From: a bacterium | GTDB taxonomy: Bacteria > Hinthialibacterota > Hinthialibacteria > Hinthialibacterales > Hinthialibacteraceae | Direction: 5' to 3' | Length of the DNA: 64,000 bases | Assembly: GCA_963662285.2 (NCBI GenBank) | Contig: CAXXMV010000002.1 | Location: 224,001-288,000 of the forward strand | In this document: piece by piece, positions 49 to 19,180 of the stretch | How positions within the stretch are numbered: the first letter of the stretch is position 1 | How the letters are laid out: each line of letters begins with the position of its first letter | Program-made: the position numbers and the translations under genes | Notes under the pieces: generated by a model | What the model was told of the DNA's origin: nothing | Databases searched by the model: none | Seen by the model: only the letters and a program-made list of their open reading frames with translations

Positions 49-1674
49 TCAGTCAAAAATAGTGAAAAGAGACTCAATTTCTTCCGACGGTTTATAGTCA
101 TGAACGCGACTTAAGACGGAAGATTTAGCAATATTATACAAAACCTTGGCCTGAACCAGATTGGAGCGGTTAAGAGCCAAGTCAATCTGCAAATCCTGCA
201 AATCGCGGAAAGTGATGTTGCCAAAGTCGCGGAAGTCTATTAGACCGGTGTCAAGGTTGAACTGAGATTGGGTTACGTTGCGCTGGATAATTTCGATGCG
301 TTGAAGTTGCAGCATCAACTCACGTAAATTCCGGTAGGTGGATTGAACAAGTTGCCGTTCGGTATCCCATAATCTGATTTTTGATTGTTCAAGATTTTCT
401 TCAAGAGCACGCACTCGTGCGCGAGTCGCTCCACCGTCGCCAAAAGCCCAAGAGAAAATAAGCGCAGCGCCCAAATTCCGGTCGCTTTCGTCATTCTGAT
501 TGGCAAAGGTTGATAAAACTAAATCCGGTTGTTGACCCAATCGAGCGACGCGGAGGGAATTTTCGGATCTTTTGATCGAAAGGCGCAAGTTTTTCAGGTC
601 TAAATTGGTTGATGTGACAAGATTGATATATTCATTACTGGCAAGAGGGAGGGGTTTTACCTCTAACTTATCAGTTAAAATCAACTCAGTTTCAAGAGGA
701 ATCCCCAGAAAGATATTTAAGCTTTCCATGGAATTTCTGAGGCTTCCTTCGAGTTCAATAAGCGAAGCTTGATTATTAAGCACGTCGGTTTGAGCTTGAC
801 CGACGTCTTTTTGAGCTGCTTTTTCGAACTCATATTGCGTTTCAATAATGAAAGAAACTCGGAGAGATTGAAGCAGGCGTTCTTTTTGAATATCAAGTCT
901 TTCCTGTAATTGCTGGATGTTCCAATAGCGGTTTATAACAGTCTCTTCAGCGCTTTTTTCCTGGGCGAATAAACTGTAATCGGATTGAATGGCGGCAATT
1001 TTGGAGTTCTCAATTTGGGTTTGAATTTCCTTGCGTGATCTGGAATTAATGGGGTAGCTATAATTTATGTTCAGCTTATATCTGTCTTCGAAATGGTTGC
1101 CTTCAGGATTGTTCGGGCCGCTGTCAAAGGCGCCCTCGGAATAGTGTTGAAAGTCCATCTCTGGTTGAATATCAAGCCTTGAGCCATTCTTGAATGTTTG
1201 AGTATAACTGGGACCAATATTAAACAGAGTATTGTTTTCGTATTCCTTCTTCGTGTCGGTTATTAATCCTTTTTCAGGATCAATACGGAAGGAGCCGGAG
1301 GCGCGTCGACTTATGGTTTCGTCCAATCGAGAATCAAGGCTGTATTTGGAGCGATAATTACTTTCGGTAAGATCAAGGTTGGCCAGGCTGCTTTGTAGAG
1401 CATGTTTATCAATTTGTATATCGGGATTTTGCTTCATTGCGATATCAATGGCGTCTTGAATCGTAATGGTCATTTGCTTGCCTTTGGTTCGGAACTCTTC
1501 ATTTTGGAGTATAGATTCGGCAACGGTGATATCTTCGATTCTCATTCTCGCGGCGGATGCTTTTAATGTAACCGGAGATGGCGCAACAATCTCCTGAGCA
1601 AAAATGGGAGCGGCAATAATAGTAAATAGAAAAATAGATAGACCTTTGGAATAACGTTGTACATTCACACTCAC
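49..1674 (-). CDS. TolC-family outer membrane efflux protein
   Basis: Signal peptide, TITIQDAIDIAMKQNPDI start-of-OEP motif, two helical OEP repeats; last gene of the RND/MFP operon. Confidence 0.88.
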   Translation of the reverse strand: MSVNVQRYSKGLSIFLFTIIAAPIFAQEIVAPSPVTLKASAARMRIEDITVAESILQNEEFRTKGKQMTITIQDAIDIAMKQNPDIQIDKHALQSSLANLDLTESNYRSKYSLDSRLDETISRRASGSFRIDPEKGLITDTKKEYENNTLFNIGPSYTQTFKNGSRLDIQPEMDFQHYSEGAFDSGPNNPEGNHFEDRYKLNINYSYPINSRSRKEIQTQIENSKIAAIQSDYSLFAQEKSAEETVINRYWNIQQLQERLDIQKERLLQSLRVSFIIETQYEFEKAAQKDVGQAQTDVLNNQASLIELEGSLRNSMESLNIFLGIPLETELILTDKLEVKPLPLASNEYINLVTSTNLDLKNLRLSIKRSENSLRVARLGQQPDLVLSTFANQNDESDRNLGAALIFSWAFGDGGATRARVRALEENLEQSKIRLWDTERQLVQSTYRNLRELMLQLQRIEIIQRNVTQSQFNLDTGLIDFRDFGNITFRDLQDLQIDLALNRSNLVQAKVLYNIAKSSVLSRVHDYKPSEEIESLFTIFD

Positions 1675-1712
1675 ATACCTTCTTTCTTTAATCTGGAGAG
1701 AGATTCTAAAAT

Positions 1713-4700
1713 TTATACGGAAATATATGGATCCCTTGTGTGGTAAAGATACGCATCTTCCAGCGTGGCTTCAATGTTAATAGCTTCTGGAGCGGGCTTA
1801 TCGTCAGAAACGATGCGTAAGCAAATGCCATCGGCGGTGTGAGTTTGGCCGCCGACAGAATAAAGTTTCCTGTAACGATGCCATGCAGACTCATCTTCCA
1901 CTATAAGTTCCCAAACCTTGTCATGAATAGATTCAACCAGTTCCTCCGGGTTCCCGGAGAAGAATAATTTACCTTCATCCATTAAAGCCAGACGCCGGCA
2001 ACTATGAGCTACATCTTCAACAATATGAGTTGATAAAATAACAACTCTATCCTGGCTCAATTGGACAAGTAAATTACGGAAGCGCAGACGCTCCATAGGA
2101 TCGAGGCCTACGGTTGGTTCATCAACAATTAATACCTTTGGGGGGAAGACGAATATTTGAGCTAAACCTATGCGGCGCATCATGCCGCCAGAGAAATTAT
2201 TAACGGAGACATCTTTTTGTTCAGATAAATTGACCATTTCGAGAGCGTTTAATATAGCGGCGCGACGTTCTTTTTTGATCTTCATTCCTTTGAGAAGGGC
2301 GAAATAGTCTAAATATTGATAGGCGGTCATGTGGCTATAGACGCCGAAGTTTTGCGGAAGATAGCCAATAAGTTTCTGCGCTTTACGTGATTCGGTTTTC
2401 ATGTCATACCCGCAAATGGATAAAAAGCCGCGAGTCGGTTGATCTATACCTGCGATCAAACGAAGAAGCGTAGTCTTCCCTGCTCCATTTGGACCTAATA
2501 GGCCGAATAAACCGCTTTCGATTTTTAAGGAAATCATATCCAATGCTTTATGCCGAGCGCGCGTAATCACTCTTCTGCTTGATCCGGCAAAAGGCGCCGG
2601 GACAATACCGGTAGCAGGAGAAAGGTTGGGGAGGAAACCGCCGTGTAGCAAAGTTCTGGAAAAACTGGATAATCTTTCAATCCGGCTAACCGGATAAATT
2701 CGGGTTAGGTGATCCAGTTCTACAATAAGAGGCTCTTCCCGTGGCGGCGTTAAGCGATAGGCAGTAAGCGATTGCCGGACGTTAAGGCGTTTTTTGCGGC
2801 TCCAAAAGATGAATATCCATCGCCAGCTGAAAACAAATTTAAAAGCTCTCTTAAACAATCTGCTGATATCTTCAACGATAAAATAGAAACCGGGTACGAT
2901 AACAAGGGTTAATACGGTTGAGCTGGCAAGACCGCCAATGACGCATCGAGCGAATGGAATCCAATCATTGTCTTGTCCTTTCCATTCTATGGCCATGGGT
3001 AGAAGGCCGAGGATGGTTGTTGCCACCGTCATTAAAATGGGGCGGAGACGGTAGTGTCCTGCAACCATAATAGCGCGTTCGCGGGGGTAATTTTTTTCCG
3101 TTCGTAGATAACCGGAGAAATGGACGAGTAATATAGCGCTATTGGGAAGGATGCCAACCAGGAAAACATAGCCCATCGCCGCCATTTCGTTGAAAGGGGT
3201 GTTTGTGAGAATAAACATCCAGCCTATGCCAAAGATAGCTAAAGGAATGGATAAAAAGATGACGAAAGGAAGGCTGAACGATTCGAAAAGAGAAGCGATG
3301 CACATGAAAATTAAGATGCCGGACATCCAGGCAATCATTTTAAATTGTTCAAAGACTTCATTCAGCCGTTGAGATCGTCCACCCAATGTCATGCGATAAC
3401 CTGCCGGGATAGGATATATATCTATTAATCCTATAACGGCTTCCTCAATTTCAGTGAAATTACTGTTGGGAGCGGTTTCAAATCTAATATGGCCAATGCG
3501 TTCGCGGTTTTCACGTCTCATAGACCCCATGCCGCGTTTAATTTCCATGACGCCTAATTCTTTTAAGGTTACAGTGGAACCCATTGAAGGAGAATAGATG
3601 GGGATATCGCTTAATTCCTCGAATTTCATGCCTCCCAAGTCTTCCATATCTTTTTCAAGGTCTTCAGTTTTTTCGATCAAATTAAAAATTATATCAATTT
3701 CCTTGTCGCCTTTTTTCATTTGGATGCTGGCGTAATCGCCCCGGCGCTGAGATAGCTGAATGGATTGAGCAATTAATCTAGGGGTGATTTGCAACAAAGC
3801 AGCTGCATCACGATCAAGCTTAAAATGCGCTTCCAGTGGTCCGGGTTCATTTTCGCTGAATACATCGCGTATACCGGGAATCTGGTTCATAACGGCGGCG
3901 AAATTTTCGGCGATTTCGTTAATTTGATTATATTCCGGGCCGCGAATTTCAATGGAGCCGCCTTGTCCGGAATCGACGACAGGCATTTGATTCTCACCTC
4001 TGGTGCGGGTAGGCGTGAAAGTGACTTCGGCAACAGAGAAATTTTCAAATAAAGGCCGAAGTTCTTCCTTTATGGTTTCGGATTCACGTTCTCGTTCATC
4101 AAGGTCTTTCAGGCGTATGCTAATGTGGGCGGAATCGTCTTGCACCCAGGAGTGAATGTTTTTGGCTTCGGGAACTTTATCTAGCAGAATATCTTCAACT
4201 TGATTTATGACTTCGAGCGTATGATCCTGCTTGGTTCCATTGGGGAGATAAACCCAGACATGGAACCAGCTGCGATCTTCAGGTTCCGCTAAGACATCCC
4301 GGCTTATGTTGCCTAATGTGTAGTAGTAGGTATAAAGGATAAACAGAACGATGGCAAGAAGAAATCTGACGCGGTGCCGAAGGCAGCTCTTAAGAATGGA
4401 ACCGTAATATTTACGAGTCCATTTCATGGTAGGTATTGGAATGCGTTGGAGAAATTTCTTCAAACGATCCGGTGAAGGGGGTGGATCAATTTTATGAGAG
4501 TTGAGTGGAGCATTTGCTTCAAGATTTGAAAGATTTTTATTAAGCGGAGCGGTCCGGGCGCGTTTTTTATCCAGGATCATCATCAAGCGCGAGGTTAGCA
4601 TGGGAACCAAAGTAAGAGCGACAAGCATTGATATGACCATGGGATAGATAATCGCAAGAGCCGCTTCTGTAAACATCAAACGGATAAAACCTTCTACAAA

Positions 4701-6050
4701 GACAATGGGGAGAAAAACAACGACATTGGTCAAGGTAAGAGCAAAAACAGCTTTGCCAACTTCGTTGCAACCTAATACAGCTGACTGGATGCCATTTTTC
4801 CCCCGTTCATGATGTCTAAATACGTTTTCAAGAACTACGATAGAGGTGTCTATCAAACAACCAACGCCAACCGCCAGTCCGACCAAGGTAAACATATTGA
4901 TCGACATGCCGGTGAAGTACATGCCGTTGAAGGTAGCTATAATACAAATAGGAATAACCAGACATACAATCAGCGACATGCGCACATTACGTATAAAGAG
5001 ATATAGCACCAACATGGAAAGCGCAATACCCATAAATGCAAGCCGTGCGAGAGTGGATAACATATCCAGGATGGGAGTGGCGGCATCTGAAGTTACCGCT
5101 AATTCGTAACCATCCGGGAGCGTTTGGTTAATCAAGTCGATAACCTTGAGAGTTTTACGTGATAAGTCGACCGGATTGATCAAGGCTTCTTTTTGCAGAT
5201 TTATGCCTAAGGCAGGTTTACCGTCGACTCGGCGAAGCCAGCGCCGGGCATGGAAAGTATCTTTAACTTCTCCCAGGTGGCGGACGGCGATGCCGCCGTT
5301 GTTTTTCACCACGACATCTTCAATTTCAGAGGTATCGCCGAATTGTCCATCCAGCCGGACGAATAGATCTTTGCCTTGTTCTTCAATATCGCCGAGGAAA
5401 ACCGGTTCATTGGCGAAAGTCTGGACTCTATTTCTAACCTGCCAAATGGGAGTCCCGAATTCCTGCAATCTGTCCTGGAGAACGGTGATATCTATCGAGC
5501 GTCTTTTACCTCCCCAAATTTCGGCAGTGGCGATGCCGTCTATATCTTCGAGTTGTTGGCGAATCTTGTCTGCGTTTATTGCTTCCAGGTAGGGATCAGA
5601 TCTGGGACCTTTCAATACCAGATCCATGAAATCACTATTAAAATGCGAAGTTTCGAAAGGAAAAGCATTCATATATATAGAACGTTTAGGGAATGTTTTT
5701 TGAAAACGATCCAAGCGTTCCTGCAAATCGACAATACGGTATTTGACGTTTGCGCCAAATTCGAATTCGATACGGAAGAATGCTCCATGTCGAAAGGTAT
5801 AAGTATAAATATTCTTAACATCTTGGAGTTGAGCGATTTCCCCTTCGACAGGGATGATGATTTTTCGTTCTAATTCTTCCGCACTCATATGTTCCATTAT
5901 GCGGCAAAACGCTCCGCCGCCAGGAACCGTGATATCCGGCAGGATCTGCATGGGAAGTTTGAAATAAGAGACGAAACCGAGAATAACGATCGCGGAAAAA
6001 AACATGATCGTGGTAATAGGTCGATGAACGGCGATACTGGATAGTTTCAT
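1713..6050 (-). CDS. RND (AcrB/AcrD/AcrF-type) permease fused to a C-terminal ABC ATPase domain
   Basis: RND hallmarks (RPITTIM...LPMQILPDI, IDTSIVVLENV, RLRPILMT) over about 1060 aa. These continue in frame into an NBD with GPNGAGKT, YLPQ, FSGGM, IVDEPT and STH. Start placed at ATG 6050 (MKLSS); the ORF track extends it to 6104. Confidence 0.9.
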   Translation of the reverse strand: MKLSSIAVHRPITTIMFFSAIVILGFVSYFKLPMQILPDITVPGGGAFCRIMEHMSAEELERKIIIPVEGEIAQLQDVKNIYTYTFRHGAFFRIEFEFGANVKYRIVDLQERLDRFQKTFPKRSIYMNAFPFETSHFNSDFMDLVLKGPRSDPYLEAINADKIRQQLEDIDGIATAEIWGGKRRSIDITVLQDRLQEFGTPIWQVRNRVQTFANEPVFLGDIEEQGKDLFVRLDGQFGDTSEIEDVVVKNNGGIAVRHLGEVKDTFHARRWLRRVDGKPALGINLQKEALINPVDLSRKTLKVIDLINQTLPDGYELAVTSDAATPILDMLSTLARLAFMGIALSMLVLYLFIRNVRMSLIVCLVIPICIIATFNGMYFTGMSINMFTLVGLAVGVGCLIDTSIVVLENVFRHHERGKNGIQSAVLGCNEVGKAVFALTLTNVVVFLPIVFVEGFIRLMFTEAALAIIYPMVISMLVALTLVPMLTSRLMMILDKKRARTAPLNKNLSNLEANAPLNSHKIDPPPSPDRLKKFLQRIPIPTMKWTRKYYGSILKSCLRHRVRFLLAIVLFILYTYYYTLGNISRDVLAEPEDRSWFHVWVYLPNGTKQDHTLEVINQVEDILLDKVPEAKNIHSWVQDDSAHISIRLKDLDERERESETIKEELRPLFENFSVAEVTFTPTRTRGENQMPVVDSGQGGSIEIRGPEYNQINEIAENFAAVMNQIPGIRDVFSENEPGPLEAHFKLDRDAAALLQITPRLIAQSIQLSQRRGDYASIQMKKGDKEIDIIFNLIEKTEDLEKDMEDLGGMKFEELSDIPIYSPSMGSTVTLKELGVMEIKRGMGSMRRENRERIGHIRFETAPNSNFTEIEEAVIGLIDIYPIPAGYRMTLGGRSQRLNEVFEQFKMIAWMSGILIFMCIASLFESFSLPFVIFLSIPLAIFGIGWMFILTNTPFNEMAAMGYVFLVGILPNSAILLVHFSGYLRTEKNYPRERAIMVAGHYRLRPILMTVATTILGLLPMAIEWKGQDNDWIPFARCVIGGLASSTVLTLVIVPGFYFIVEDISRLFKRAFKFVFSWRWIFIFWSRKKRLNVRQSLTAYRLTPPREEPLIVELDHLTRIYPVSRIERLSSFSRTLLHGGFLPNLSPATGIVPAPFAGSSRRVITRARHKALDMISLKIESGLFGLLGPNGAGKTTLLRLIAGIDQPTRGFLSICGYDMKTESRKAQKLIGYLPQNFGVYSHMTAYQYLDYFALLKGMKIKKERRAAILNALEMVNLSEQKDVSVNNFSGGMMRRIGLAQIFVFPPKVLIVDEPTVGLDPMERLRFRNLLVQLSQDRVVILSTHIVEDVAHSCRRLALMDEGKLFFSGNPEELVESIHDKVWELIVEDESAWHRYRKLYSVGGQTHTADGICLRIVSDDKPAPEAINIEATLEDAYLYHTRDPYISV

Positions 6051-6091
6051 TGTAATTAATCTGCGTCTGACGACAGCCTCGCTAAGTTCTA

Positions 6092-8833
6092 TTAATGTCT
6101 CCAAAAGTGTCGATGATTATTTCTTCTGGTATTTGCGCGAAGAGCGGTGGTATCATCGCCTTCGATCAAAATTCTTCTTTCGGAGTGCATTCTGGATTTT
6201 TTTATTTTATCAAGATGAGGAACCTGTAATATCCAATTTTCGGGATCGACAACAGCAAAGATGGGTCGGTGAGGAGATGTAAGGTCCAAGGTTTTTTCTT
6301 CTCCGGCGTCCAACCATATATTCCGGGTTATATAATCCATCTCTGTTTCTACATAAATAGGTACGGCCATACGGCCAGAGCCATGGTTTTTGACGCGGAC
6401 TAAAGTTTTGTAAGTGATAACGCCGGTTCTATCGTCGGTGATTAATTTCGCTTCGGTATAAGTTATTTCGTATTCCGGCAAGGCATTTCCCAAAACCCAT
6501 TCATCAATATACCACCCCAGGTCATCTCCATAGAACTCTTCTAACAAAGGACGCAGCTCGTCAACGGGTATCTCCTGGAAGCGATAGCGACGGAACATCT
6601 CGCGCAGAAACGCCCACCAAGGTTTATCTCCCATAATATGATGCAGCATACGGAATAAAGCTTCACCACGAATACGTTCCAGTTCGGGGTGAGTTCCCAT
6701 TTTATGCAGAGATAAAAGAGATTCGCTTTTGGCGACGGAGAGCGGGAGATTGCGATTACTTCCAACATCGTATTTTAATTCTCTGCGGCGTTGCCAGGAA
6801 TTTCGTTCAAGTAATTTTGAGGCGTAACTTGATAAATAATCATTGACCCAAAAAGCCATTTCTCCGGTTGGGTGTATGGAGTGGTCGAAATATGCGCTGA
6901 TAAGGTTGCGATAAAAATTGTCGTGAATTTCACGTAATGTTTGGGGGAGCAATTGATAAAAGGGTATCAAACGCGGGTTGTGGTCGAATCTTTCCATCAA
7001 CCACATTTCTTCACTTATATAGCACATTTGATTTTCCGACACCAGGAACATACCGGGCATTTGAGCGTAGTACGTCTGTGGATTGGCTAAAGGTTTCGCC
7101 CAGGGAATTCTTAATTTATTGCGTTGAGAATATTCGGTCCGCCAAGTGTAAGGCGTTTCGACCAAGGTTAACTGGTTGAAGGGGATGCGGCCCAATTTAT
7201 CATTAACAAATTCGTGTTGATCCTTAACTTCTTCCATATATATCTGAGCTTTATATTTGTGCATGGGGAAATGGTAGAAGCGAACGTTATATCCAAAAGA
7301 ATCACTTTCCAGTAATTGGTAGTTACCCCAATACATCTGTAATCGGTTAACGGGATATAAGGTTGACCAATGCTCGGTGCGGGCCTGGCCGTCTTCTTGG
7401 GAGTCGATCAAATCACCAGCGAAAGCGCCTTGCTGGCCTGGTTCCAGATGAAGCGTGATTTCTGACTCGAACAGGTCGTCATCAACCTTGACCCAGCGTT
7501 CATTTTCCGCTTGGAATTTGCGCCATGGAACAGGATACCATTTATTATGCATGGCGGTGTATTGTGGATGAAACTCCACCGGGGCGCCATGATAATTAAC
7601 CGATAATCTATATTCTTGATGCGGGATTAAAGATTCGCTGAAGTTAAATCGGACGCGGTTTTGTTGACGTGCGAAAGAACATTCTTGATTATCAAGTGCA
7701 GCTTCATCAACAGTGTATCTTGGATCAAGTTCAACGCCTAAATATCTGGTGGATTCTTTCGGGGTGAAGATTAAATCCGACTGGATATCCAAGCGGCTGT
7801 ATGTTTCGTTAGGTTTCAAGTCGAATTCATATTTTTGAAGGTCTACAGAAATAGCGGGAAACTTGACTCTTACCACGTTTTCTTCATGGCCATGTCCGTT
7901 TTTGATAAGAAAGTCTTTATAACTATATGTCGCCCAAATTACGCTGGTAGCGGATACAAGCAAAGTAAGCGTAAGAAATAAACGATATCCCCAACCCAAA
8001 TGGCGATCAAAGCGTAGATTGGTTATTGCTCGCATTATTAATGAGACGCTAAATAGACTGTTGCGTTTTCGATTTACAATCCACCTTTGAGGTTCCTGTC
8101 TTCTCAAATATAAGGGAGCAAAGGAAAGGATGGTCAAGCTTAATAAAGCATGCATAAATAATTGCACCCAATATTTTTCAAAAGAAAGACGTACTCCAAT
8201 AGTGGAAGATGAATTGGCGAGGTATCTAATGACGTCGGGGATATTGATTAAAATTCCTTCATGTACGCCCAGTTGATAAACGAATGCTCCAATAAGGCCG
8301 CCAATGATCAAGGCGGCGAAGTCATGTTTGAAAAAAGAGCGCATGGTTATCGCTAAAGCTGCTACTGGCACTATGACCGGAAGAACAAGAAGGATAAAAG
8401 CAACCCAGAAAGGCCGCCAGATAATCATACCATGCCCATATAGATATTGCCATAAGCCAAAGGAAAAAATACCTATTAAACTAAGAGGAACCATGACGAT
8501 AAGGACGCCGAGCAAGCGTCCACACATGAGAGAGGTGACGCCTACCGGCAGGGGGAACAAAATCTTATCCATACGGCTATGGCGTAGGCGACCACAGATA
8601 TCAAGCGCCAGAGCGCAGGCGCCAAGTCCGAGAATGGCTATCATCAACCAGAAACTCGGGTGTTGAAAGCTAAAAGCGGAATGAAGGAAAAATCCATCCT
8701 GCGCTCGTATAAGATAGTCTCGACGAGCGAACAGAGATATCCCTGCAACAAGTCCTAATAGCAGCCAGAAACGCCATCCACGACAGCTCATGCGAGCTTC
8801 GTTTAAGGCGATCAGTATGGTTTTGCGCAACAT
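6092..8833 (-). CDS. ABC-2-type permease fused to an M1 aminopeptidase-like domain (catalytic motifs degenerate)
   Basis: N-terminal multi-TM ABC-2 membrane domain (IALNEARM..., LFPLPV...GRLLG). The C-terminal part follows the M1 layout (RGEALFRMLHHIMGD, DLGWYIDEWV, VVDPENWIL) but has no HEXXH. Confidence 0.75.
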   Translation of the reverse strand: MLRKTILIALNEARMSCRGWRFWLLLGLVAGISLFARRDYLIRAQDGFFLHSAFSFQHPSFWLMIAILGLGACALALDICGRLRHSRMDKILFPLPVGVTSLMCGRLLGVLIVMVPLSLIGIFSFGLWQYLYGHGMIIWRPFWVAFILLVLPVIVPVAALAITMRSFFKHDFAALIIGGLIGAFVYQLGVHEGILINIPDVIRYLANSSSTIGVRLSFEKYWVQLFMHALLSLTILSFAPLYLRRQEPQRWIVNRKRNSLFSVSLIMRAITNLRFDRHLGWGYRLFLTLTLLVSATSVIWATYSYKDFLIKNGHGHEENVVRVKFPAISVDLQKYEFDLKPNETYSRLDIQSDLIFTPKESTRYLGVELDPRYTVDEAALDNQECSFARQQNRVRFNFSESLIPHQEYRLSVNYHGAPVEFHPQYTAMHNKWYPVPWRKFQAENERWVKVDDDLFESEITLHLEPGQQGAFAGDLIDSQEDGQARTEHWSTLYPVNRLQMYWGNYQLLESDSFGYNVRFYHFPMHKYKAQIYMEEVKDQHEFVNDKLGRIPFNQLTLVETPYTWRTEYSQRNKLRIPWAKPLANPQTYYAQMPGMFLVSENQMCYISEEMWLMERFDHNPRLIPFYQLLPQTLREIHDNFYRNLISAYFDHSIHPTGEMAFWVNDYLSSYASKLLERNSWQRRRELKYDVGSNRNLPLSVAKSESLLSLHKMGTHPELERIRGEALFRMLHHIMGDKPWWAFLREMFRRYRFQEIPVDELRPLLEEFYGDDLGWYIDEWVLGNALPEYEITYTEAKLITDDRTGVITYKTLVRVKNHGSGRMAVPIYVETEMDYITRNIWLDAGEEKTLDLTSPHRPIFAVVDPENWILQVPHLDKIKKSRMHSERRILIEGDDTTALRANTRRNNHRHFWRH

Positions 8834-8872
8834 CCTAATTTATTCCTTTCGCTTAACCTTTGGATGGTGGAA

Positions 8873-11800
8873 TCAGGCTTCCTGATGTTCCACTTCAACG
8901 CTTTGCGTCCCAAATAGCGAAAATAGTTTGTATATAATCTGTACTGCATCTTCAAATAGGCTGTAAACAACAGGGATGATAAGTAATGTCAAGATGGTGG
9001 AGGACAACAATCCACCGATAACCGCTATGGCCATCGGGGCCCGGATTTCGGCGCCTTCTCCGAAGCCCATAGCCAGAGGTAAAAGAGCCAGAACCGTAGT
9101 TAATGTTGTCATGAGGATGGGACGCAAACGACGGCATCCGGCCCGGACAATGGCGTCAAACATTTCCTCGCCTTCGTCCCGGCGGAGATAATTAATGTAG
9201 TCGACAAGCACAATTGCGTTGTTGACGACGATGCCGGCCAGCATAATGATGCCAATGTATCCCATCAAATTTAAGGTTTGCCCGGTTAGATAAAAAGCCC
9301 AGATTACGCCCACTGCGGCGAGAGGCAGTGAAAACATGATAACGAATGGATGGAGAAGAGATTCAAATAACGACGCCATAACCATATATACAAGAACCAG
9401 TGCGAGAACCAGTGCGAAGGCGAGTCTTTCAAAAGATTCACGTCTACGCTGCTCTTCTCCACCGAAATTTATATAATAATTGCTTGGTGGTTGAATGTTT
9501 CCAATACTCTCTTGAACCGCTCCAACCGCATCGCTCAGTTTTTGACCTTCAGCCACGTCCGCCAGGACTCGAGCGATACGTTCCTGCTCCCGGTGTAGTA
9601 TTTCCCGTGGTCCGGGTTGAATATCCACATCGACCAGGTTGCCCAGAGTAACGGCTTGGCCATTTCCTGTCGGAATTAGAGTGTTGAGCAGTTCGGGCAG
9701 GTTCATTTCTCCATCACCCAGTTGAACGCGGATGGCTTTAGTTTGATCAACGTCCTGCAGGTTGGTGGCTACCATCCCGCGTAATTGGTTGGAGACAAGT
9801 GTTATTAACTGTTGTTGATCAAGATCGTATTCATTCATAAGAATACGGTCCGGGATAAGGTGCACTTCTGGATTCCCATCGAGGATAGTGGTTCGAATAT
9901 TGGCCAATTCGGCCAAAGTATCCATTTGGGCTTTTACATCTTTAGTAAGGTTGGTTAAGGTTTCTAAACTACGTCCTTTAATTTCAACGACGATAGCGGC
10001 TTTTTCGCCTCCGATTAATGTAGCAAGGGAAGTTTGAGACATAAGAAAGGTCAGTTCCAACTTATGTATTTGCTTTGCTCGCGGCTCTAAATATTCTATT
10101 ACCTGTGGTACGGATAGCGAGGAGCCATTTTTGAGTGAAACGAGCATTTCCGCCGTATGCGAACCTTCAGGTTCTTCATCAATGGCGCCGGTGTCGTTGG
10201 GCTTGGGGCCAATGCGGGTGAAAATATGATCGATGTGCTGTCCCAAATCTTGTGAAAGCCAACCTTCGATGCTTTTCGCGGCTTGTTCTGTTGTTTCCAG
10301 CTTGGAACCGGGCGGCAAGCGTAATTTAACAATGAATTGTGATTCGGCGGCTTGTGGAATAAATTCCTGTTTGATTTCTTGAAGCAAGGGATAAACAGAC
10401 AAACAAGCCAGTGAGATAAATAAACAAGTAATAAAGCGGTGTCGCAACGAGAAGGCTAAAAAGGAAGCGTAGATTCCGCCTTGCGTGTCGGAACGCGCCT
10501 GGGGAACTTTTTTCAAGTAACGGGAGCATAATGCAGGGATCATAATTAATGCAACAACTAATGATGTAAGCAAAGAGAAGACAACGGTTAAGGCTTGTTC
10601 CTTAAATAATTGCGCTGTAACGCCGCCCATATAGGCAATAGGGACGAAAACAACTACGGTAGTAAGGGTTGCGGCGGCGATGGCCGAAGCAACTTCTCCG
10701 GCGCCAATCATGGCGGCATCAGAAGGAGAGTCGCCTAGTTGCCGACGGCGAAAGATGTTTTCGATAACAACAATGGCATTATCCACTAACATGCCTGCCC
10801 CTAAGGCCAGGCCGCCCAAAGTCATGATATTGAGTGAAAGATCCATAAAATACATCAGGTTGAAAGTTGCTAAAATGGATACTGGAATAGCTAAAGCAAC
10901 AATGATGGTTGAGCGGATATTTCTTAAAAAAATCAAAAGAATTAATGATGCTAATCCAATGCCCTGAAAAGCAGTGTTCTTGACCTCTGATATTGAGCGG
11001 TTGATGAACAGCGATTGGTCATAAGCGACTTCCAGAGTTAAATCTTTGGGAATTATGCTGGTTTCCTGTCTTAGTCCAAATCCCCCTGCCATGCCTCTAT
11101 TACTGACAGGCTGGAGTTTATCTTGATCTTTGCCAAGAAAGTCACGGACAGATTTAACGACGTCAACCGTGTTTCCGCCAGCTTCTTTGTATAAAGCGAT
11201 GCCAACGCCGGGATTATTATCCATCCGTACCATATCTACCGGTTCTTCAAAACTCCACTTTGCTTCGCCCACATCGGTAAGATAAATGGGAACGCCGCCG
11301 GAATAACCAACGACGCATTGGGCGACCTGTTCGATATCTTCGATTTCGCCTATAGCCCTGATCATATAGCGCTGATTACCCTCTTCAACATATCCGCCGG
11401 AAGCGCTGACATTGGCTTGATCCAAGGCCTGTGAAATAGCTGGTATGGAAAGACCATAAAAATGGAGCAATTCGGGATCGAGCATACAATGGATTTCGGG
11501 GATTAATCCTCCGGTAACTTCGGCGCGGGCTACTCCCTTAATTCGTTCCAGGGCCGGGCCGATGGTACGTTCGCAGAGATAACGCAATTCTTCTAAATTA
11601 CGTTTTCCATATAATCCCAATGTCATAATGGGTAATGCGTTTGGATCGTAGCGATAAGCCGTTATTTCTTCGATTTCATCAATACGGCTGCCCTGGGTAT
11701 TCTTCTTAACTTCGAGCATGGCGAAGTTCATATCGGTTCCCCAGTTAAAATCGACGATTATGGCGCCTGAATCGGCGCGGGAAACGCTGGATACTTTATC

Positions 11801-12133
11801 GACGCCCGAGATAGTCTTTAATCGTCCTTCTAGAGGCTCAATGACGATTCTTTCTATTTCCTGGGGCGCCAAACCGGGAGCGTCGGCCATTACGGTTATT
11901 CTGGGGGCCCTTAGATCGGGGAATAAGTTGGTCGGTAATTTGCTGAGTGATATCCAACCCAGCATAATAATGCCTACAAAAAACATGCTGACCGTTACAG
12001 GGTATTTTACTGCGAATGCCGCGGCGCCCATTCCTCTACGAAGAAGGCCGCCATCTTCAATAGAACCATCTTGCGGTTGGCCAGCAACTTCTGAAGTTGC
12101 TTGATTTAAATTTTCTTTTTCACGATTATCCAT
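8873..12133 (-). CDS. RND (AcrB/AcrD/AcrF-type) efflux permease
   Basis: YPVTVSM...LPTNLFPDL, GMLVDNAIVVIENI, GIVVNNAIVLVD, RLRPILMTTLTT; 1086 aa. Confidence 0.95.
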   Translation of the reverse strand: MDNREKENLNQATSEVAGQPQDGSIEDGGLLRRGMGAAAFAVKYPVTVSMFFVGIIMLGWISLSKLPTNLFPDLRAPRITVMADAPGLAPQEIERIVIEPLEGRLKTISGVDKVSSVSRADSGAIIVDFNWGTDMNFAMLEVKKNTQGSRIDEIEEITAYRYDPNALPIMTLGLYGKRNLEELRYLCERTIGPALERIKGVARAEVTGGLIPEIHCMLDPELLHFYGLSIPAISQALDQANVSASGGYVEEGNQRYMIRAIGEIEDIEQVAQCVVGYSGGVPIYLTDVGEAKWSFEEPVDMVRMDNNPGVGIALYKEAGGNTVDVVKSVRDFLGKDQDKLQPVSNRGMAGGFGLRQETSIIPKDLTLEVAYDQSLFINRSISEVKNTAFQGIGLASLILLIFLRNIRSTIIVALAIPVSILATFNLMYFMDLSLNIMTLGGLALGAGMLVDNAIVVIENIFRRRQLGDSPSDAAMIGAGEVASAIAAATLTTVVVFVPIAYMGGVTAQLFKEQALTVVFSLLTSLVVALIMIPALCSRYLKKVPQARSDTQGGIYASFLAFSLRHRFITCLFISLACLSVYPLLQEIKQEFIPQAAESQFIVKLRLPPGSKLETTEQAAKSIEGWLSQDLGQHIDHIFTRIGPKPNDTGAIDEEPEGSHTAEMLVSLKNGSSLSVPQVIEYLEPRAKQIHKLELTFLMSQTSLATLIGGEKAAIVVEIKGRSLETLTNLTKDVKAQMDTLAELANIRTTILDGNPEVHLIPDRILMNEYDLDQQQLITLVSNQLRGMVATNLQDVDQTKAIRVQLGDGEMNLPELLNTLIPTGNGQAVTLGNLVDVDIQPGPREILHREQERIARVLADVAEGQKLSDAVGAVQESIGNIQPPSNYYINFGGEEQRRRESFERLAFALVLALVLVYMVMASLFESLLHPFVIMFSLPLAAVGVIWAFYLTGQTLNLMGYIGIIMLAGIVVNNAIVLVDYINYLRRDEGEEMFDAIVRAGCRRLRPILMTTLTTVLALLPLAMGFGEGAEIRAPMAIAVIGGLLSSTILTLLIIPVVYSLFEDAVQIIYKLFSLFGTQSVEVEHQEA

Positions 12134-12196
12134 CAGAGATCCTTCTGTTTAGACTATACAAAATTGAACAAATCCATATCAGGAACACCATTAAAC

Positions 12197-13042
12197 CTAT
12201 GTAAACCACTTGGACGTTTGCCGTAATTGGCGGAAAAGATAATCTAATACAAATCCAGCCAATACCAGAACAAATATTCTGTTAAAAATTATGGAAAATA
12301 AGGGTGAATTTCTTGAAATTACGCCCGGGGGAAGAATCGGATTGGCGAACAGTTCGATAGGGCCGATAGAGCGCAACCAGAAAAAATGGACGCCCAAAAT
12401 AAGCAGTGATACTAATCCGGTAGCAATTCCATGTTTGCAAAAGGTTGATACTAATATTGTTATGGAACCAACAGCAAAAGATGTTGTGGTTAACAGTAGA
12501 ATTATGGTCCATCGCCCTTCGGTATATGCGCTGAAGTAGCTGAAAAACAATATTACCAGAACGCTAAAAATTAGTTGCCAAAGGGTTACTGTAACAAGTT
12601 GAAGAACAATCAATGCGCCGCGACGAATTGGTTGGCTCCAAAGAATTTCCAGTGTTCCATCATCCCTTTCACGGGGTAATATGTTCATGCATAGTAAAAC
12701 CATAACTAGCGAGAAATAGATGTAGCAATAATATAAGAGCTCATGCATATTCTGGCCATGGTTTTGGGTTACTACCCAGCCAAAAAAAGCTAATGCTCCA
12801 ATTAGCGCAAGAAAGGATTCGATGCGTAGAAAAAGCCGGGAAGTAAAAAGAAATAATTTGAACCAATAAGAAATCTCTCTGAAACTCCATTTTACGGCGT
12901 GGAAAAAAGTTGCTATGATCCAATATATATTCTGGCCTAGTACGATAAAGAGTGAAAGAAAACCTTTCCACGCACGTTTAATAAGACCTGGCGGCATGCT
13001 GGCGGAAGCAGGAAGTTTTTCTAAATTATCCAATGAATCCAT
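12197..13042 (-). CDS. ABC-2 type transporter permease
   Basis: About 6 hydrophobic segments and an ERDDGTLEILWSQPI coupling-helix motif; lies directly downstream of the ABC ATPase. Confidence 0.8.
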   Translation of the reverse strand: MDSLDNLEKLPASASMPPGLIKRAWKGFLSLFIVLGQNIYWIIATFFHAVKWSFREISYWFKLFLFTSRLFLRIESFLALIGALAFFGWVVTQNHGQNMHELLYYCYIYFSLVMVLLCMNILPRERDDGTLEILWSQPIRRGALIVLQLVTVTLWQLIFSVLVILFFSYFSAYTEGRWTIILLLTTTSFAVGSITILVSTFCKHGIATGLVSLLILGVHFFWLRSIGPIELFANPILPPGVISRNSPLFSIIFNRIFVLVLAGFVLDYLFRQLRQTSKWFT

Positions 13043-13053
13043 GGTTCATTTCC

Positions 13054-13932
13054 CTATGCAGCTTGTGAATCGGTGTTTAGAAATCGGATATATGCATCTT
13101 CCAGATTAGGCGCCACATTGTGCGCGTTCTCTTTAGGAGGCGTTGGCGAAATAATGCGGAAGCAAATGCCTTTTATGTCTTCACGGATAGAGACCAGATT
13201 CTTACTGCCGGTGAAGGTCTCTACGTCATCTGCATCGCCATAAAATTCCCAGGTTTGTTCATTTGCGGCTCTCACGAATTCAGAAGGAGAGCCATGAAAG
13301 TGGATGCGACCATCCAGCAGCAACGCTAATTTACTGCATGTTTCTTCGATGTCTTTAACAATGTGGGTAGAAAGAATGACAATTCTATTCTGTCCCAATT
13401 CAAACAGTAAATTTCTGAAATGGATGCGTTCTTCAGGGTCAAGTCCTGCGGTTGGCTCATCGACCACGATTAGTTTAGGATCGTTTATCAGAGCTTGAGC
13501 GATGCCGATGCGTCGCAGCATCCCGCCGGAGAAAGTTTTCAGGCGTTTATGAGCTACTTCGGTAAGACGTACAGCAGCCAACAATTCATCGATATTGCGA
13601 CGCAGATTGCGACCATACATGCCGCGTAGACCGCCGAGATAATTGAGGAATTCTCTAGCAGTCAATTCTGGAAAGTAGCCGAAAAATTGTGGTAAATATC
13701 CTAGCAAGGGACGAATTTTACTTGCTTGTTTACGGCTATCGAAACCATCGATTAGAATTGTTCCAGAAGTCGGTTCTAACAGCTGGGTTAAAATTTCCAT
13801 CAAAGTTGTTTTTCCGGCGCCGTTTGGACCCAGCAATCCGAAAAGACCATCTTTTATATGGAGGTCGATTTCCTTCAGGGCTTGATGTCCGTCGGGATAT
13901 ATTTTAGAAAGATCTTTACAAATCACTTCCAT
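13054..13932 (-). CDS. ABC transporter ATP-binding protein (ABC-2/DrrA-like)
   Basis: Walker A GPNGAGKT, Q-loop YLPQ, signature FSGGM, Walker B IVVDEPT, H-loop STH. Confidence 0.95.
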   Translation of the reverse strand: MEVICKDLSKIYPDGHQALKEIDLHIKDGLFGLLGPNGAGKTTLMEILTQLLEPTSGTILIDGFDSRKQASKIRPLLGYLPQFFGYFPELTAREFLNYLGGLRGMYGRNLRRNIDELLAAVRLTEVAHKRLKTFSGGMLRRIGIAQALINDPKLIVVDEPTAGLDPEERIHFRNLLFELGQNRIVILSTHIVKDIEETCSKLALLLDGRIHFHGSPSEFVRAANEQTWEFYGDADDVETFTGSKNLVSIREDIKGICFRIISPTPPKENAHNVAPNLEDAYIRFLNTDSQAA

Positions 13933-13982
13933 AATGGGTGATCTCCGAAATAGGCGCAGAGAAAGCGGTATTACGAAATTTT

Positions 13983-14006
13983 AAAAGCCGCGTTTGAAGA
14001 CGCGGC
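13983..14006 (-). terminator. Intra-operon hairpin with short U tract after the MFP gene
   Basis: Minus strand GCCGCGT-CTTCAA-ACGCGGC followed by TTTT. Confidence 0.5.
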
Positions 14007-14033
14007 GAATATTTATCATAAGCAGCATGGCTA

Positions 14034-15566
14034 TTATTTTGCGTCGGATTCAGTGGTTGTTTTTGTGGAATCATCTCCACTAAGGAATTCCTCATCGCGA
14101 ATAGTGATATTGATGTCAACATCATCGGTTAGCGTTTCATATCCTAATACTACAAGAAGATCGCCTTCTTGCAGACCGTCGATAATTTCAATTTTTTCAC
14201 GATTCTCTATACCGACGGTAACCACTCTCTCCTCGGCAATAAGATCAGGTTCTTCTTTTTTAACTGGTTCTTCCTCTTCATCAAACAGTTCTTCGTCAGT
14301 TGCATCAGAGATATCATCAGTAGCGGCTGCAATTTTAGGGGAAATATCTTCGGCGGCGGATGCTGTTTTTTCAAAACCTTTATTCGAAGCTAAAGGAATT
14401 TTTTCGTTTGAAGGTTGATCATCGTTTGTTTGGGGCAATTGCAATTCTTCGGTTGCGCTTTTAACTTCTTCTTCGATGGGTTTTTCCTTTGCAACAAAGA
14501 CAACCTGGCGGTTGTTGCGTAGAAGCACCAATTCCCGTGGGATGCTTATGGAATCTAATCTCTCTTCGGTAATTATCCTTGCTTTGGCGAACATACCCGG
14601 CCGTAATTCGTGGGCGGGATTATCTACCAGAACATTGACGGTATAGGTTCGGGTGGTTGAGTTGAGCGCGGTGGAGATATCAGCGATTTTGCCGATATAA
14701 ACCATAGCGGATTTGGTATAGACTTCGAGTTCTACCTGTTGTCCAATTTCCACTTCGACAAGATCTTTGGCTGGCACATCAAGCGCCACATAGACCTTGT
14801 CGATATTTGCCAATCGGCAGAGAACGGTGCCTTGAGCAATGGTTTGACCATTAAATAATGTCAAATCAGTCTCTTCGGTGGATCGTTGGGCTATGGAGAC
14901 ATTTTGCCGGGCTGGCAGAAGAACGCCGCTATATGGGATTACAATGGGAACTTTTTCTTGATCCTGCTTGATTCTTTGTAATTCCATTTGTCTGGAACGA
15001 ATCGTTTTCAAGGTAGACTCAAAAGCATTTTTTCTTTGTATTCTGGCAAGAATCGCTTGATCATACTCATATTTGGAGATAGCGCCGCGTTCGAACATCG
15101 CTTGCTTAAATGCTTCATCTTTATAAGCTTGCGCCAAGTTAGCGCTGGCTGGATTGATCTCTGCTTTGGCTGATTCAAGTTGCAATTCAGATATTTCAAT
15201 ATTCCGGTTTAATTCACGCGCATCCATTCTGGCCAGGATTTCGTCTTTTTTAACTTCGTCGCCTTCCAGCCATTTCTGCGTATAGTAAATACGGCCAGAC
15301 ATTTCAGGTTTGATTTCCAGTTCTTTAATAGGGACGACAGTTCCTCTGGCCTGGAGATAGGCAAACATTCTGCCGCGGGTAACGCGTTCTACGGTTACAG
15401 GTATTTTGAATTTGGGTTTTTGAGGTTTACCAAAATTTCCACCGGGTTTTCCTTGTGAAAGTTTACTGCCCTGCCCCGCTTTGTTGGATTTTCCCCCGAA
15501 ATATCCGCAACCAGTGATTAAAGCGATTCCAAGCGTAAGAATTAAAAAACTGCGCACCATTTTCAT
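14034..15566 (-). CDS. RND periplasmic adaptor (membrane fusion protein), lipoprotein
   Basis: Lipobox LITGC, IKPEMSGRI...EGDEVKKDEILA biotinyl-lipoyl motif, helical hairpin, LRPGMFA and IEIIDGLQEGDLLVV motifs. Confidence 0.92.
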   Translation of the reverse strand: MKMVRSFLILTLGIALITGCGYFGGKSNKAGQGSKLSQGKPGGNFGKPQKPKFKIPVTVERVTRGRMFAYLQARGTVVPIKELEIKPEMSGRIYYTQKWLEGDEVKKDEILARMDARELNRNIEISELQLESAKAEINPASANLAQAYKDEAFKQAMFERGAISKYEYDQAILARIQRKNAFESTLKTIRSRQMELQRIKQDQEKVPIVIPYSGVLLPARQNVSIAQRSTEETDLTLFNGQTIAQGTVLCRLANIDKVYVALDVPAKDLVEVEIGQQVELEVYTKSAMVYIGKIADISTALNSTTRTYTVNVLVDNPAHELRPGMFAKARIITEERLDSISIPRELVLLRNNRQVVFVAKEKPIEEEVKSATEELQLPQTNDDQPSNEKIPLASNKGFEKTASAAEDISPKIAAATDDISDATDEELFDEEEEPVKKEEPDLIAEERVVTVGIENREKIEIIDGLQEGDLLVVLGYETLTDDVDINITIRDEEFLSGDDSTKTTTESDAK

Positions 15567-16196
15567 AATGATCGATTCCTGTATTGATTTATTGATTAAT
15601 TAACTTCTTGTAATTATATTGCTTATGATAGTTCAAAGATAATGAAGATTCAGTGTTCCCTACTTAACTTTATTTTTGAATAAACGTTTGACATCTCTTT
15701 TTACTACGCAAATTTACCTATAAAGGTTTAAAAAAAGTTTTACGATAAACGAAATAGAATATTTCAAATAGTACAAAAACGACAAATTCATCGTTCAAAT
15801 TTGACCAATAAATACAAAATCACAATATTATTTATTTATCATATAATTAATAGCCAGTGGCTATCAGTCCGCTTTATCCGCTGGCGGCTTTGTGAGCGGA
15901 ACAAATAGGAGGAATTAATTTAATAAGTATAGGTCTCGTATTTAAGAAGATATGTTCCTTTTAAAATAATTTTATCATAGGAGAATTATCAAGATGAATT
16001 TATTAAAATATGATGGTAATTCTCATATTTATCTGCATAAATCTTTAGACTTGATAACGGCCAAAATATTCTTTTCATCTATAAATCTATTCAATTATTT
16101 TTTTAATCTATTCTATTGTAGCGAGGCGCTGAATATGAGAAACTGGTAATAGGGTTAATTATTCTTGATTATAAAATAAGTCTATTTGTAAAATGA

Positions 16197-17495: not shown

Positions 17496-17576
17496 GGTCA
17501 ACTCTTTATGATTCTTTCATGTAATTTAATGCTAGATTACTATATCATTGATGTCATATCAAAAAAGGAAAAGACT

Positions 17577-18584: not shown

Positions 18585-18715
18585 TATGCAAAAGATGTAG
18601 AATTGGTTTTATCTTCTACGTTGATTGTAGATAAAATATATAGAGATTAATAAGGTGGATCCAATCAAGGGCAGAAAGGACACTGCCCTTGCCACCCGTT
18701 TTGGTGGGATAATAG

Positions 18716-19174: not shown

Positions 19175-19180
19175 GAAGGT

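Follow-up and report, generated by a model that had tools for sequence, protein, structure and literature searches.

Can a resistance-nodulation-division (RND) pump and an ATP-binding cassette (ABC) transporter, which are treated as separate efflux classes with different energy sources, be joined in a single export machine? The question is raised by seven genes on the minus strand of a 64,000-nucleotide stretch of DNA (the window, by which the whole stretch is meant) from a bacterium of the family Hinthialibacteraceae (GenBank assembly GCA_963662285.2, contig CAXXMV010000002.1, positions 224,001 to 288,000). The genes occupy window positions 49-15566. In order of transcription, they encode a lipoprotein adaptor of the membrane fusion protein (MFP) type, a free nucleotide-binding domain (NBD), a small ABC-2 permease, the RND protein RND-A, a 913-residue permease with a domain resembling M1 aminopeptidases (permease::M1-like), a second RND protein fused to a second NBD (RND-B::NBD), and a TolC-like outer membrane channel. 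An original prediction, made from the DNA letters alone, had listed these seven parts; the list is borne out by the open reading frames (ORFs), whose coordinates are the same, and by domain assignments with Pfam and NCBIfam. All the parts are members of known families, and the searchable literature yielded no described counterpart of the combination. The reading favoured here, with slightly better than even confidence, is that the seven components form one machine, in which an ATP-driven ABC-2 module is tethered to an RND-MFP-outer membrane factor (OMF) pump and export proceeds in two steps. Comparative evidence establishes the architecture and its co-inheritance, whereas the coupling mechanism, the stoichiometry, and the substrate are hypotheses; the interpretation given in the original prediction is thus supported in part.

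The RND-NBD Fusion

The feature that joins the two modules is a single frame of 1463 residues, which contains an ACR_tran domain (residues 22-1077, 552 bits) followed by an ABC_tran domain (residues 1189-1331, 95 bits). Judged from this sequence, the modules are tethered, with one NBD forming a C-terminal extension of RND-B. The C-terminus of an RND protein is cytoplasmic, which places the fused NBD on the correct side of the membrane. In an alignment of 13 sequences, the linker carries the conserved motif SWRWxFVFWSxKxR…LTAYR…PPREEPL, with alignment columns S94, W97, W102, R107, E125, P126, and L127 invariant. Across the same 13 sequences, the Walker A, Q-loop, signature, Walker B-Glu, and H-loop elements of the fused NBD are also invariant, as are the strings GPNGAGK, FSGGM, VDEPT, and STHIVED. 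The fused NBD carries an insert of about 45 residues between strands β1 (LTRIY) and β2, and it has a C-terminal domain in common with the free NBD. An AlphaFold2 (AF2) model of residues 1000-1463, comprising the final helices of RND-B, the linker, and the fused NBD, reached a mean predicted local distance difference test (pLDDT) score of 74. In this model the NBD is well folded, the linker forms helical segments (pLDDT 58-67), and part of the β1-β2 insert is disordered.

The free NBD, which is 45% identical to the fused one, also contains Walker A, the Q-loop, an FSGGM signature, Walker B-Glu, and the H-loop, and both NBDs are predicted from these residues to be catalytically intact. Neither fits a curated ABC family closely: the NCBIfam GldA model scores 190 bits against the free and 167 bits against the fused NBD (cutoff 402.6), and the DrrA model scores 185 bits against the free NBD, also below its cutoff. 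The nearest solved relatives of the fused NBD are ABCA4, ABCA3, ABCA1, ABCA7, TM0544, and NosF (E-value 9e-28 for NosF). Searches with the window's RND and NBD sequences found no solved PDB chain that spans both domains, and a structure-feature search of the ESM Atlas with residues 1060-1463 returned generic ABC ATPase clusters only. Likewise, no curated NCBIfam or Pfam model for the fusion or for the 913-residue protein was found in a scan of the window proteins.

Conservation in the Order of the Window

Residues 1000-1463 of the fusion, which span the junction, were used as a query against other genomes. Besides the window genome (G000), a junction-spanning match is present in 23 of the 25 genomes of its order: 17 of 19 in the same family (f1), 4 of 4 in f2, and 2 of 2 in f3. 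The matching frames are open over 1429-1501 residues, save two that are cut by contig ends (540 residues in G025, 1202 in G023); in G003 the match is limited to query residues 187-452, within a 1448-residue frame. The covalent RND-B::NBD link of the original prediction is therefore upheld by the continuous frame and by the conserved junction. None of the 15 more distant genomes searched gave a junction match.

The seven window proteins were then compared by tblastn with 12 fusion loci from 11 relatives, and in 11 of these loci the complete set of seven recurs with its order and orientation unchanged. They include both sister families, where the 913-residue protein is only 29-34% identical to that of the window. 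In the same 11 of 12 loci the MFP orthologues (43-61% identical) keep their position and the OMF orthologues come last in the cluster. The 913-residue protein occurs in the same genomes of the order as the fusion; the two f1 genomes that lack the fusion, G005 (94% complete) and G016 (82% complete), lack this protein as well.

A further locus was seen in G028, which belongs to a different family of the class (G028:C12:162976-170458). It encodes an NBD that is 40% identical to the fused NBD and, about 6 kb away, a 367-residue frame that matches residues 694-888 only of the 913-residue protein (E-value 2e-29). The junction search found no fusion in G028, and the locus may represent a related or reduced system.

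Distribution in Other Phyla

A protein search with the linker and NBD showed that fusions of PF00873 and PF00005 exist well beyond this order: all 120 matches listed carry both domains. The source names among these matches are Candidatus Hinthialibacter, Omnitrophota, Aminicenantes, KSB1, Chlorobi, Zixibacteria, Calditrichaeota, and Latescibacterota. The matches listed fall into two length classes, one of about 1420-1465 residues, like the window protein, and a "long type" of about 1545-1590 residues. According to hydropathy, transmembrane (TM) helix 12 of the long type is followed by two extra TM helices, and the β1-β2 insert holds about four others, so that, on hydropathy only, its NBD would be an unusual, membrane-anchored one. 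Long-type fusions were found in a Bacteroidales metagenome-assembled genome (MAG; loci L037 and L107) and in a Pseudomonadales MAG (L035), and at least three junction-spanning loci (L023, L035, L037) are among the best 80 loci of a contig-wide search.

The Bacteroidales MAG holds the same seven components as the window in another order, namely NBD (297 residues), permease::M1-like::Golvesin_C (1111 residues), OMF, MFP, RND-A, RND-B::NBD (1567 residues), and a small ORF. The latter encodes a 239-residue protein with 6 TM segments that is 25% identical (E-value 6e-5) to the small permease of the window. The 1111-residue protein aligns with the family of the 913-residue protein over 725 columns (hhalign probability 99.2%, E-value 6.5e-20), and no HEXXH motif was found in it. 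Since this cluster includes a free NBD and a TMD::M1-like protein (TMD, transmembrane domain), the idea that long-type systems have a single NBD and a single TMD, with an A1B2 trimer, was rejected.

Among 8000 scored candidates, the 1111-residue family has at least 1588 members at an E-value of 1e-5 or better, and its sources include the cultured genera Maribellus, Mariniphaga, and Draconibacterium. Records of this family are named "xanthan lyase", "golvesin C-terminal-like domain-containing protein", "M1 family aminopeptidase", or "hypothetical"; such names are carried, for instance, by the permease::pseudo-M1::Golvesin_C proteins P0170, P0174, P0220, and P0230. These labels look like transfers from single domains that misdescribe a 7-TM ABC-2-like permease. 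The label "xanthan lyase" is explained by PMC9166713, according to which golvesin and a Bacillus xanthan lyase are the two characterized proteins with this CBM6/35/36-like, carbohydrate-binding-type domain.

In 121 genomes of unreported completeness sampled from the order of the Bacteroidales MAG, the fusion junction (E-value at most 1e-80) was detected in 18, and permease::M1-like (at most 1e-40) was detected in the identical 18; with these queries, the other 103 have neither. Kin among these genomes are not independent. Seventeen of the 18 fusions are open frames of 1552-1764 residues, and the remaining one (G148) is cut by the contig start. Ten of the fusion loci were compared gene by gene: six have all seven genes in one order, three run into the end of the contig or of the stretch compared and are consistent with that order up to there, and the tenth (in G158) holds the fusion by itself. 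Together with the complete loci of the window's order, these bear out the expectation, set beforehand, that the RND pair and the ABC genes would occur together in other genomes.

The Permease with a Pseudo-M1 Domain

The 913-residue protein is the least recognizable member of the set. Taken alone, its sequence gives only sub-threshold matches to four ABC-2 families (E-values 0.09-4) and to Peptidase_M1 (0.011). Among 36 aligned relatives, Peptidase_M1 is matched by 25 and each of the four ABC-2 families by three to six (E-value at most 0.01). A protein database search returned 33 proteins at an E-value of at most 0.001, the query itself included, with lengths of 895-935 residues except for one partial record (515 residues). 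Named records among them read "hypothetical" or NosY-type permease, and one is from Candidatus Hinthialibacter antarcticus.

The AF2 model of the protein (pLDDT 84.4; predicted template modeling score 0.79) has 6+1 TM helices, at residues 20-45, 59-85, 99-132, 139-167, 171-192, 218-237, and 281-312. A basic cytoplasmic loop lies between TM6 and TM7, and TM7 is followed by a domain of 560 residues, which the modelled 7-TM topology places in the periplasm. Foldseek matched this domain over about 600 columns to the PDB structures of PSA, ERAP1, IRAP, and PepN, with E-values around 1e-19 (1.2e-19 for 8sw0) and 11-13% identity. A profile of the family likewise matched the sequences of the M1 protease 6a8z (E-value 2e-6) and of aminopeptidase N (about 5e-3). 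An M1 fold, consisting of the N-terminal β domain and the thermolysin-like domain, is thus present in the model, and the M1-like label given to this permease in the original prediction holds, with the addition that the zinc site is degenerate. No conserved HEXXH site was found in the 36-sequence alignment. The zinc-ligand positions hold His in 17 of 36 (651) and 23 of 36 (654) sequences, the third-ligand position 665 is Asp, Glu, or Lys in 14, 10, and 4 sequences, and the equivalent of the catalytic Tyr is Arg in 20 of 36. On the other hand, E600, E608, R615, D617, R722, R728, and H732 are invariant in all 36, and the GxMEN-like E-N pair is kept (E600 in 36, N601 in 30). By these residues the domain is a catalytically degenerate pseudo-peptidase and not a canonical peptidase; with its zinc site lost, it could bind but not cleave.

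The membrane portion shows weak resemblance to the ABC-2 type in several comparisons. A profile comparison with the small TMD is weak and in register (probability 2.8%, E-value 0.016), PF12679 is precomputed in Bacteroidota homologues of this domain, and the Bacteroidales homologue scores 23.7 bits against an ABC-2 model, below the cutoff of 27.2. A complex prediction for residues 1-320 with the small TMD scored 0.01 (mark 0.32, no controls) and carries no weight either way. Overall, the 913-residue protein is read as an ABC-2-like permease with a periplasmic pseudo-M1 domain. Two copies contain in-frame stops, a TGA in one orthologue (G015:C21:5676-8366) and a TAA in a second Bacteroidales-order copy (G148:C37:14331-17651); these could be pseudogenes or sequencing errors.

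The RND Pair and its Proton Relay

RND-A and RND-B are 27-29% identical to one another and have the full-length RND architecture of 12 TM helices with two large periplasmic loops, as they cover positions 3-1020 and 2-1020, respectively, of the 1021-position ACR_tran profile. Against the multidrug RND subfamily of NCBIfam they reach 652 and 464 bits, short of the cutoff of 1250, and the best solved relative of RND-A is MdtB (E-value 1.7e-101).

In AcrB, D407, D408, K940, R971, and T978 make up the canonical HAE1 proton relay. The equivalent residues were read from an alignment with E. coli AcrB, MdtB, and MdtC, and with a partial CusA for the TM4 region only. D407, R971, and T978 are kept in all 25 rows from the window's order (12 RND-A, 13 short RND-B). 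The D408 equivalent is Asn in RND-A and in most long-type fusions, and Thr, Ser, or Asn in short RND-B; the K940 equivalent is Asn in all 25 rows. In the window proteins, TM4 accordingly reads D-N in RND-A and D-T in RND-B, and TM10 has Asn in both. Of 70 long-type fusions, 69 keep D407 (P0121 has Asn), all keep R971, and 69 keep T978 (P0080 has Met). The single long-type fusion with D-D also has Lys (P0117), which suggests a compensated variant rather than loss of the relay. D-N in TM4 with Asn in TM10 is the predominant form in this RND clade, and the two sites co-vary. The other RND paralogues of the window genome display DD/K (two), DN/K, DN/N, DS/N, DD/N, and DD/R. Since DN/N and DS/N also occur in these unfused proteins, the variant relay is not specific to ABC-linked RNDs, and a lost relay was rejected as the mark of an ATP-driven RND. 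Proton coupling of the pair is plausible on this residue pattern, and an RND trimer built from the two paralogues would probably be proton-driven, because both keep the TM4 Asp and the TM11 Arg.

Phylogeny and Origin

Forty-seven RND sequences, with rows from Hinthialibacter-like bacteria, Bacteroidales, Pseudomonadales, and other named phyla, were placed in a quick maximum-likelihood tree, with the Shimodaira-Hasegawa-like approximate likelihood ratio test (SH-aLRT) only and no bootstrap. The 26 fused RND-B rows all fall into a single clade (SH-aLRT 100), and the 14 RND-A rows, including the Bacteroidales and Pseudomonadales partners, all fall into another (99). An unfused paralogue from the window genome joins the RND-A and RND-B clades (95), with E. 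coli MdtB, MdtC, and AcrB outside. A second tree, of 53 NBDs, gathers every RND-linked NBD into a single clade (99) relative to three other ABC-2 NBDs of the window genome, and in it the clade of free NBDs (100) is sister to the short fused NBDs (86). Both trees come from a quick search and have long branches (L035, outgroups). The single RND-B clade and single RND-A clade, with MdtB and MdtC outside, indicate that the fusion probably arose once. The trees may be read as an ancient A/B duplication followed by one fusion event, with the free NBD as a paralogue of the fused type. On these relationships, the window system would be a derived representative of a module that is widespread and probably arose only once.

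Comparison with Known Systems

Like MdtABC-TolC and MuxABC-OpmB, the cluster combines one adaptor, two adjacent genes for RND paralogues, and an outer membrane channel, and MdtBC itself has the stoichiometry MdtB2C1. In contrast to MdtABC and MuxABC, one RND paralogue of the window system bears an NBD, four ABC components belong to the conserved set, and the D408 and K940 equivalents of the RNDs are replaced. In the RND tree, MdtB and MdtC pair with each other (SH-aLRT 100), outside both the clade of RND-A and that of RND-B, and the MdtB and MdtC equivalog models score 400 and 433 bits (cutoffs 1584 and 1774); by tree and scores, the window pair is not orthologous to MdtB/MdtC. MacAB-TolC, too, is composed of an ABC ATPase, an adaptor, a TolC-type channel, and a permease with a periplasmic domain. 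However, MacB is a 4-TM type VII ABC protein with the NBD fused to its own permease, according to the accessible text of PMC8277102. The window permeases, on the other hand, have 6 and 6+1 TM helices and give ABC-2 matches, the NBD is on the RND protein, and an RND pair is present; the match to MacA is weak and concerns the adaptor only (49.8 bits, cutoff 342).

The ABC module resembles NosDFY, DrrAB, GldAFG, ABCA, and ABCG, in that GldA and DrrA are the best-scoring models for its NBDs, and ABCA and NosF the best structures, while its small TMD is of the ABC-2 family and its large one is ABC-2-like. It differs from them in that it is below every equivalog cutoff and has no NosD or GldG partner, a pseudo-M1 domain is attached to one TMD, and one NBD belongs to an RND polypeptide. 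The pseudo-M1 domain has the fold of domains I-III and the E-N pair of M1 aminopeptidases (PepN, ERAP1, IRAP, and Deinococcus 6a8z) but lacks the conserved HEXXH-(18)-E site, the catalytic Tyr, and domain IV, and it is carried by a 7-TM permease.

Precedents exist for cooperation between the two energy sources. In the Sec holotranslocon, ATP and the proton motive force cooperate through SecA-SecYEG and the RND-superfamily protein SecDF, and single-component inner-membrane pumps feed AcrAB-TolC. As in the window system, a first-step or ATP-driven transporter delivers to the periplasmic face and a member of the RND superfamily acts next. The partners in these precedents are separate proteins, whereas in the window system the link is covalent and the gene set is co-inherited; to our knowledge, drug-efflux feeder pumps and AcrAB-TolC do not form a complex. 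No description of an RND-NBD fusion was found in the searchable full-text literature, including the accessible parts of PMC8277102, PMC9324843, PMC3924187, and PMC9166713. The statement in the original prediction that no characterized system couples RND and ABC transporters agrees with this search, the scope of which leaves most subscription journals and supplements outside.

A Proposed Two-Step Mechanism and its Rivals

In the proposed machine, the first module would be a tripartite RND pump made of the lipoprotein adaptor, the old paralogues RND-A and RND-B, and the TolC-like channel. The second would be a heterodimeric ABC-2 (type V) transporter with two paralogous NBDs and two different TMDs, the NBDs forming an ATPase dimer on the TMD heterodimer. 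Such a dimer needs one RND-B per ABC unit, which favours an A2B1 arrangement; the RND trimer is probably A2B1, with one tethered NBD per ABC dimer. Powered by ATP, the ABC-2 module would bring an amphipathic substrate, by flipping or extraction, to the periplasmic face of the inner membrane; there the pseudo-M1 domain would hold the substrate or hand it over, and the adjacent RND-A/RND-B trimer would expel it through the adaptor and the channel. The ABCA-like NBDs and the carbohydrate-binding-type module of the Bacteroidota versions are weak hints of a lipid- or glycan-linked substrate. A more ambitious form of this reading, to which the analysis gives a little less than an even chance, is that of a fourth, dual-energized kind of tripartite exporter: an ABC-2 heterodimer docked on an RND heterotrimer, of single origin, in which ATP hydrolysis and proton-driven expulsion are coupled mechanically or kinetically within one complex. 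It would have spread across Hinthialibacter-like bacteria, Bacteroidota, and Pseudomonadales and, going by database source names, also Zixibacteria, Calditrichota, KSB1, Latescibacterota, Aminicenantes, and Chlorobi-type bacteria.

Several observations weigh against the proposed machine. Complex, stoichiometry, and substrate are all hypothetical. The gene sets are not always intact: the twelfth locus of the window's order is a second, solitary fusion copy in G020 (L021, G020:C97, 7156-13935), which follows an ECF sigma factor and two unknown ORFs, and in one Bacteroidales-order genome (L114, G158:C1) the fusion stands alone, sharing a contig with its permease::M1-like gene at a distance of about 575 kb. 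Solitary and split fusions therefore exist, and strict adjacency is not required. In addition, the canonical HAE1 relay is incomplete, since both paralogues have other residues at the D408 and K940 positions, the 913-residue protein has a membrane domain that is only weakly recognizable as ABC-2, and the sister relation of free and short fused NBDs rests on an SH-aLRT of 86 in a quick search. Finally, no biosynthetic or regulatory gene that hints at the substrate was found next to the operon (upstream ORFs were scanned for families; downstream ORFs were listed only).

Among the rival explanations, the one with the largest claim, though unlikely, is mechanotransmission: ATP hydrolysis by the NBDs would open and close the pseudo-M1 domain without transbilayer transport, and this domain would capture a ligand from the periplasm or the outer leaflet and load it into the RND protein or the adaptor, or clear it from them. 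Such a mechanism has been proposed for NosDFY, MacB, LolCDE, and FtsEX. The NosY-type label given to the large TMD by one source, and the place of NosF among the solved NBD relatives (E-value 9e-28), point in this direction. So do the size and conservation of the non-catalytic periplasmic domain, with its own invariant residues, and the addition of the carbohydrate-binding-type Golvesin_C in Bacteroidota versions (going by the accessible part of PMC9166713). The closest solved NBD relatives, however, are ABCA lipid transporters, which move substrates; moreover, no sequence feature separates mechanotransmission from true flipping, and by itself it does not explain the need for an NBD-RND fusion. 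It is quite doubtful that the genes are merely co-localized, as independent transporters of related substrates with a fusion that serves co-expression, 1:1 dosage, or side-by-side placement. Both modules look complete on their own, and solitary or split arrangements occur, as this explanation would have it. Independent pumps, however, would be expected to separate often, and the identical 18-of-121 phyletic pattern of the fusion and TMD::M1-like, the retention of seven genes despite changes of order between phyla, and a fusion of single origin kept ever since with a conserved linker motif all indicate selection on the combination.

Another suggestion, which seems improbable, is that the NBD pair drives the RND trimer through the TMDs or the linker and so replaces or supplements the proton motive force. 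In its favour are the replacement of the D408 and K940 equivalents, which affects the two paralogues as well as 69 of 70 long-type fusions, the position of the NBD within about 45 mostly helical residues of TM12, and the extra TM helices that anchor the NBD further in the long type. On the other side, all window-order rows retain the equivalents of D407, R971, and T978, as do 69, 70, and 69, respectively, of the 70 long-type fusions, and D-N/N is also seen in an unfused RND of the same genome (C1:926192); moreover, we know of no precedent for an ATP-energized RND. Lastly, a mis-assembly, or a missed stop or frameshift, might have joined an RND gene to an ABC gene, the window being from a draft genome of 8 contigs. 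This explanation is refuted by the unbroken frames of 1429-1501 residues in independent genomes of three families, by the two domains present in every one of the 120 database matches listed, and by the 18 Bacteroidales-order genomes that match across the junction, 17 of them with open frames.

Gene Order and Flanking Regions

The coordinates of the cluster and of its domains are collected in Table 1.

Table 1. Features of the seven-gene cluster in the window, and examples of long-type fusions from other genomes.
Feature	Coordinates	Strand	Evidence
MFP (periplasmic adaptor), 510 residues	14034..15566	-	HlyD_D23 77.9 bits; TIGR01730 RND_mfp 145.4 bits, cutoff 94.9
Free ABC ATPase (NBD), 292 residues	13054..13932	-	ABC_tran 108.4 bits
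Small ABC-2 permease (TMD), 281 residues	12197..13042	-	ABC2_membrane_2 35.3 bits, cutoff 27.2
RND-A, 1086 residues	8873..12133	-	ACR_tran 768.6 bits, residues 39-1060
913-residue protein, whole ORF	6092..8833	-	no Pfam/NCBIfam family above cutoff
913-residue protein, N-terminal membrane domain, residues 1-312	7898..8833	-	AF2 model, sub-threshold ABC-2 matches
913-residue protein, predicted periplasmic M1-aminopeptidase-like domain, residues ~330-890 (M1 domains I-III)	6164..7846	-	Foldseek, profile
RND-B::NBD fusion, 1463 residues, one open frame	1713..6104	-	ACR_tran + ABC_tran
RND-B portion, residues 19-1080	2865..6050	-	ACR_tran 551.8 bits, residues 22-1077
Linker, RND TM12 to NBD, residues ~1081-1123	2736..2864	-	alignment of 13 sequences
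Fused NBD, residues 1124-1463	1716..2735	-	ABC_tran 95 bits, residues 1189-1331
Outer membrane factor (TolC-like), 541 residues, signal peptide	49..1674	-	OEP 89.6 bits in 2 stretches
Long-type fusion examples (~1550-1610 residues)	L037 7160-11863; L035 5370-10208; P0074		hydropathy

In order of transcription, the genes are separated by gaps of 101, 11, 63, and 39 bp, a 13-bp overlap, and a 38-bp gap. The overlap depends on the start of RND-B, which is listed as TTG 6104. Most orthologues align from residue 14-23, near ATG 6050, and on this alignment the latter is the likely start, in which case the overlap becomes a gap of 41 bp. The MFP has a lipoprotein-type signal (…ITGC) and, on inspection of its sequence, an acidic low-complexity insert at about residues 365-440. 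The small TMD has about six hydrophobic segments according to hydropathy, and alignment reveals a conserved C-terminal motif, DYLxRRLRxTAEWFT. The OMF scores 63.9 bits against TIGR01844, below the cutoff.

Upstream of the operon, 630 bp away on the same strand, lies a 434-residue ORF without a Pfam match (16197-17501, minus strand). The spacer (15567-16196) has a GC content of about 0.35-0.36, compared with about 0.44 in the operon. Farther upstream (17508-21047) are genes for the TRAP transporter proteins DctP and DctQ, a CheD homologue, and an FG-GAP repeat protein, all unrelated to the operon as far as visible. The downstream minus-strand ORFs of at least 90 residues comprise two of 107 and 92 residues, inside or overlapping larger plus-strand ORFs, and then one of 374 residues about 2.2 kb off. 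With such unrelated flanks, the operon is read as seven genes. A scan for promoters and terminators was uninformative, with 31 and 17 sites where shuffled sequences averaged 34.8 and 17.3.

Implications

The system also matters for annotation in practice. In databases the fusion currently goes under no more than "efflux RND transporter permease subunit" or "ATP-binding cassette domain-containing protein", and its partner permease under "hypothetical", "xanthan lyase", or "M1 family aminopeptidase". A widely conserved architecture of this kind would surprise specialists in efflux. A conserved RND-ABC polypeptide that is generally co-inherited with the other parts implies a physical RND-ABC assembly. 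The presence of the module in cultured, non-pathogenic Bacteroidota (Maribellus, Mariniphaga, and Draconibacterium) makes experimental work feasible, and, if the assembly proves true, the idea of two-step efflux, in which an inner-membrane transporter feeds an RND pump that captures its substrate from the periplasm, would become directly testable.

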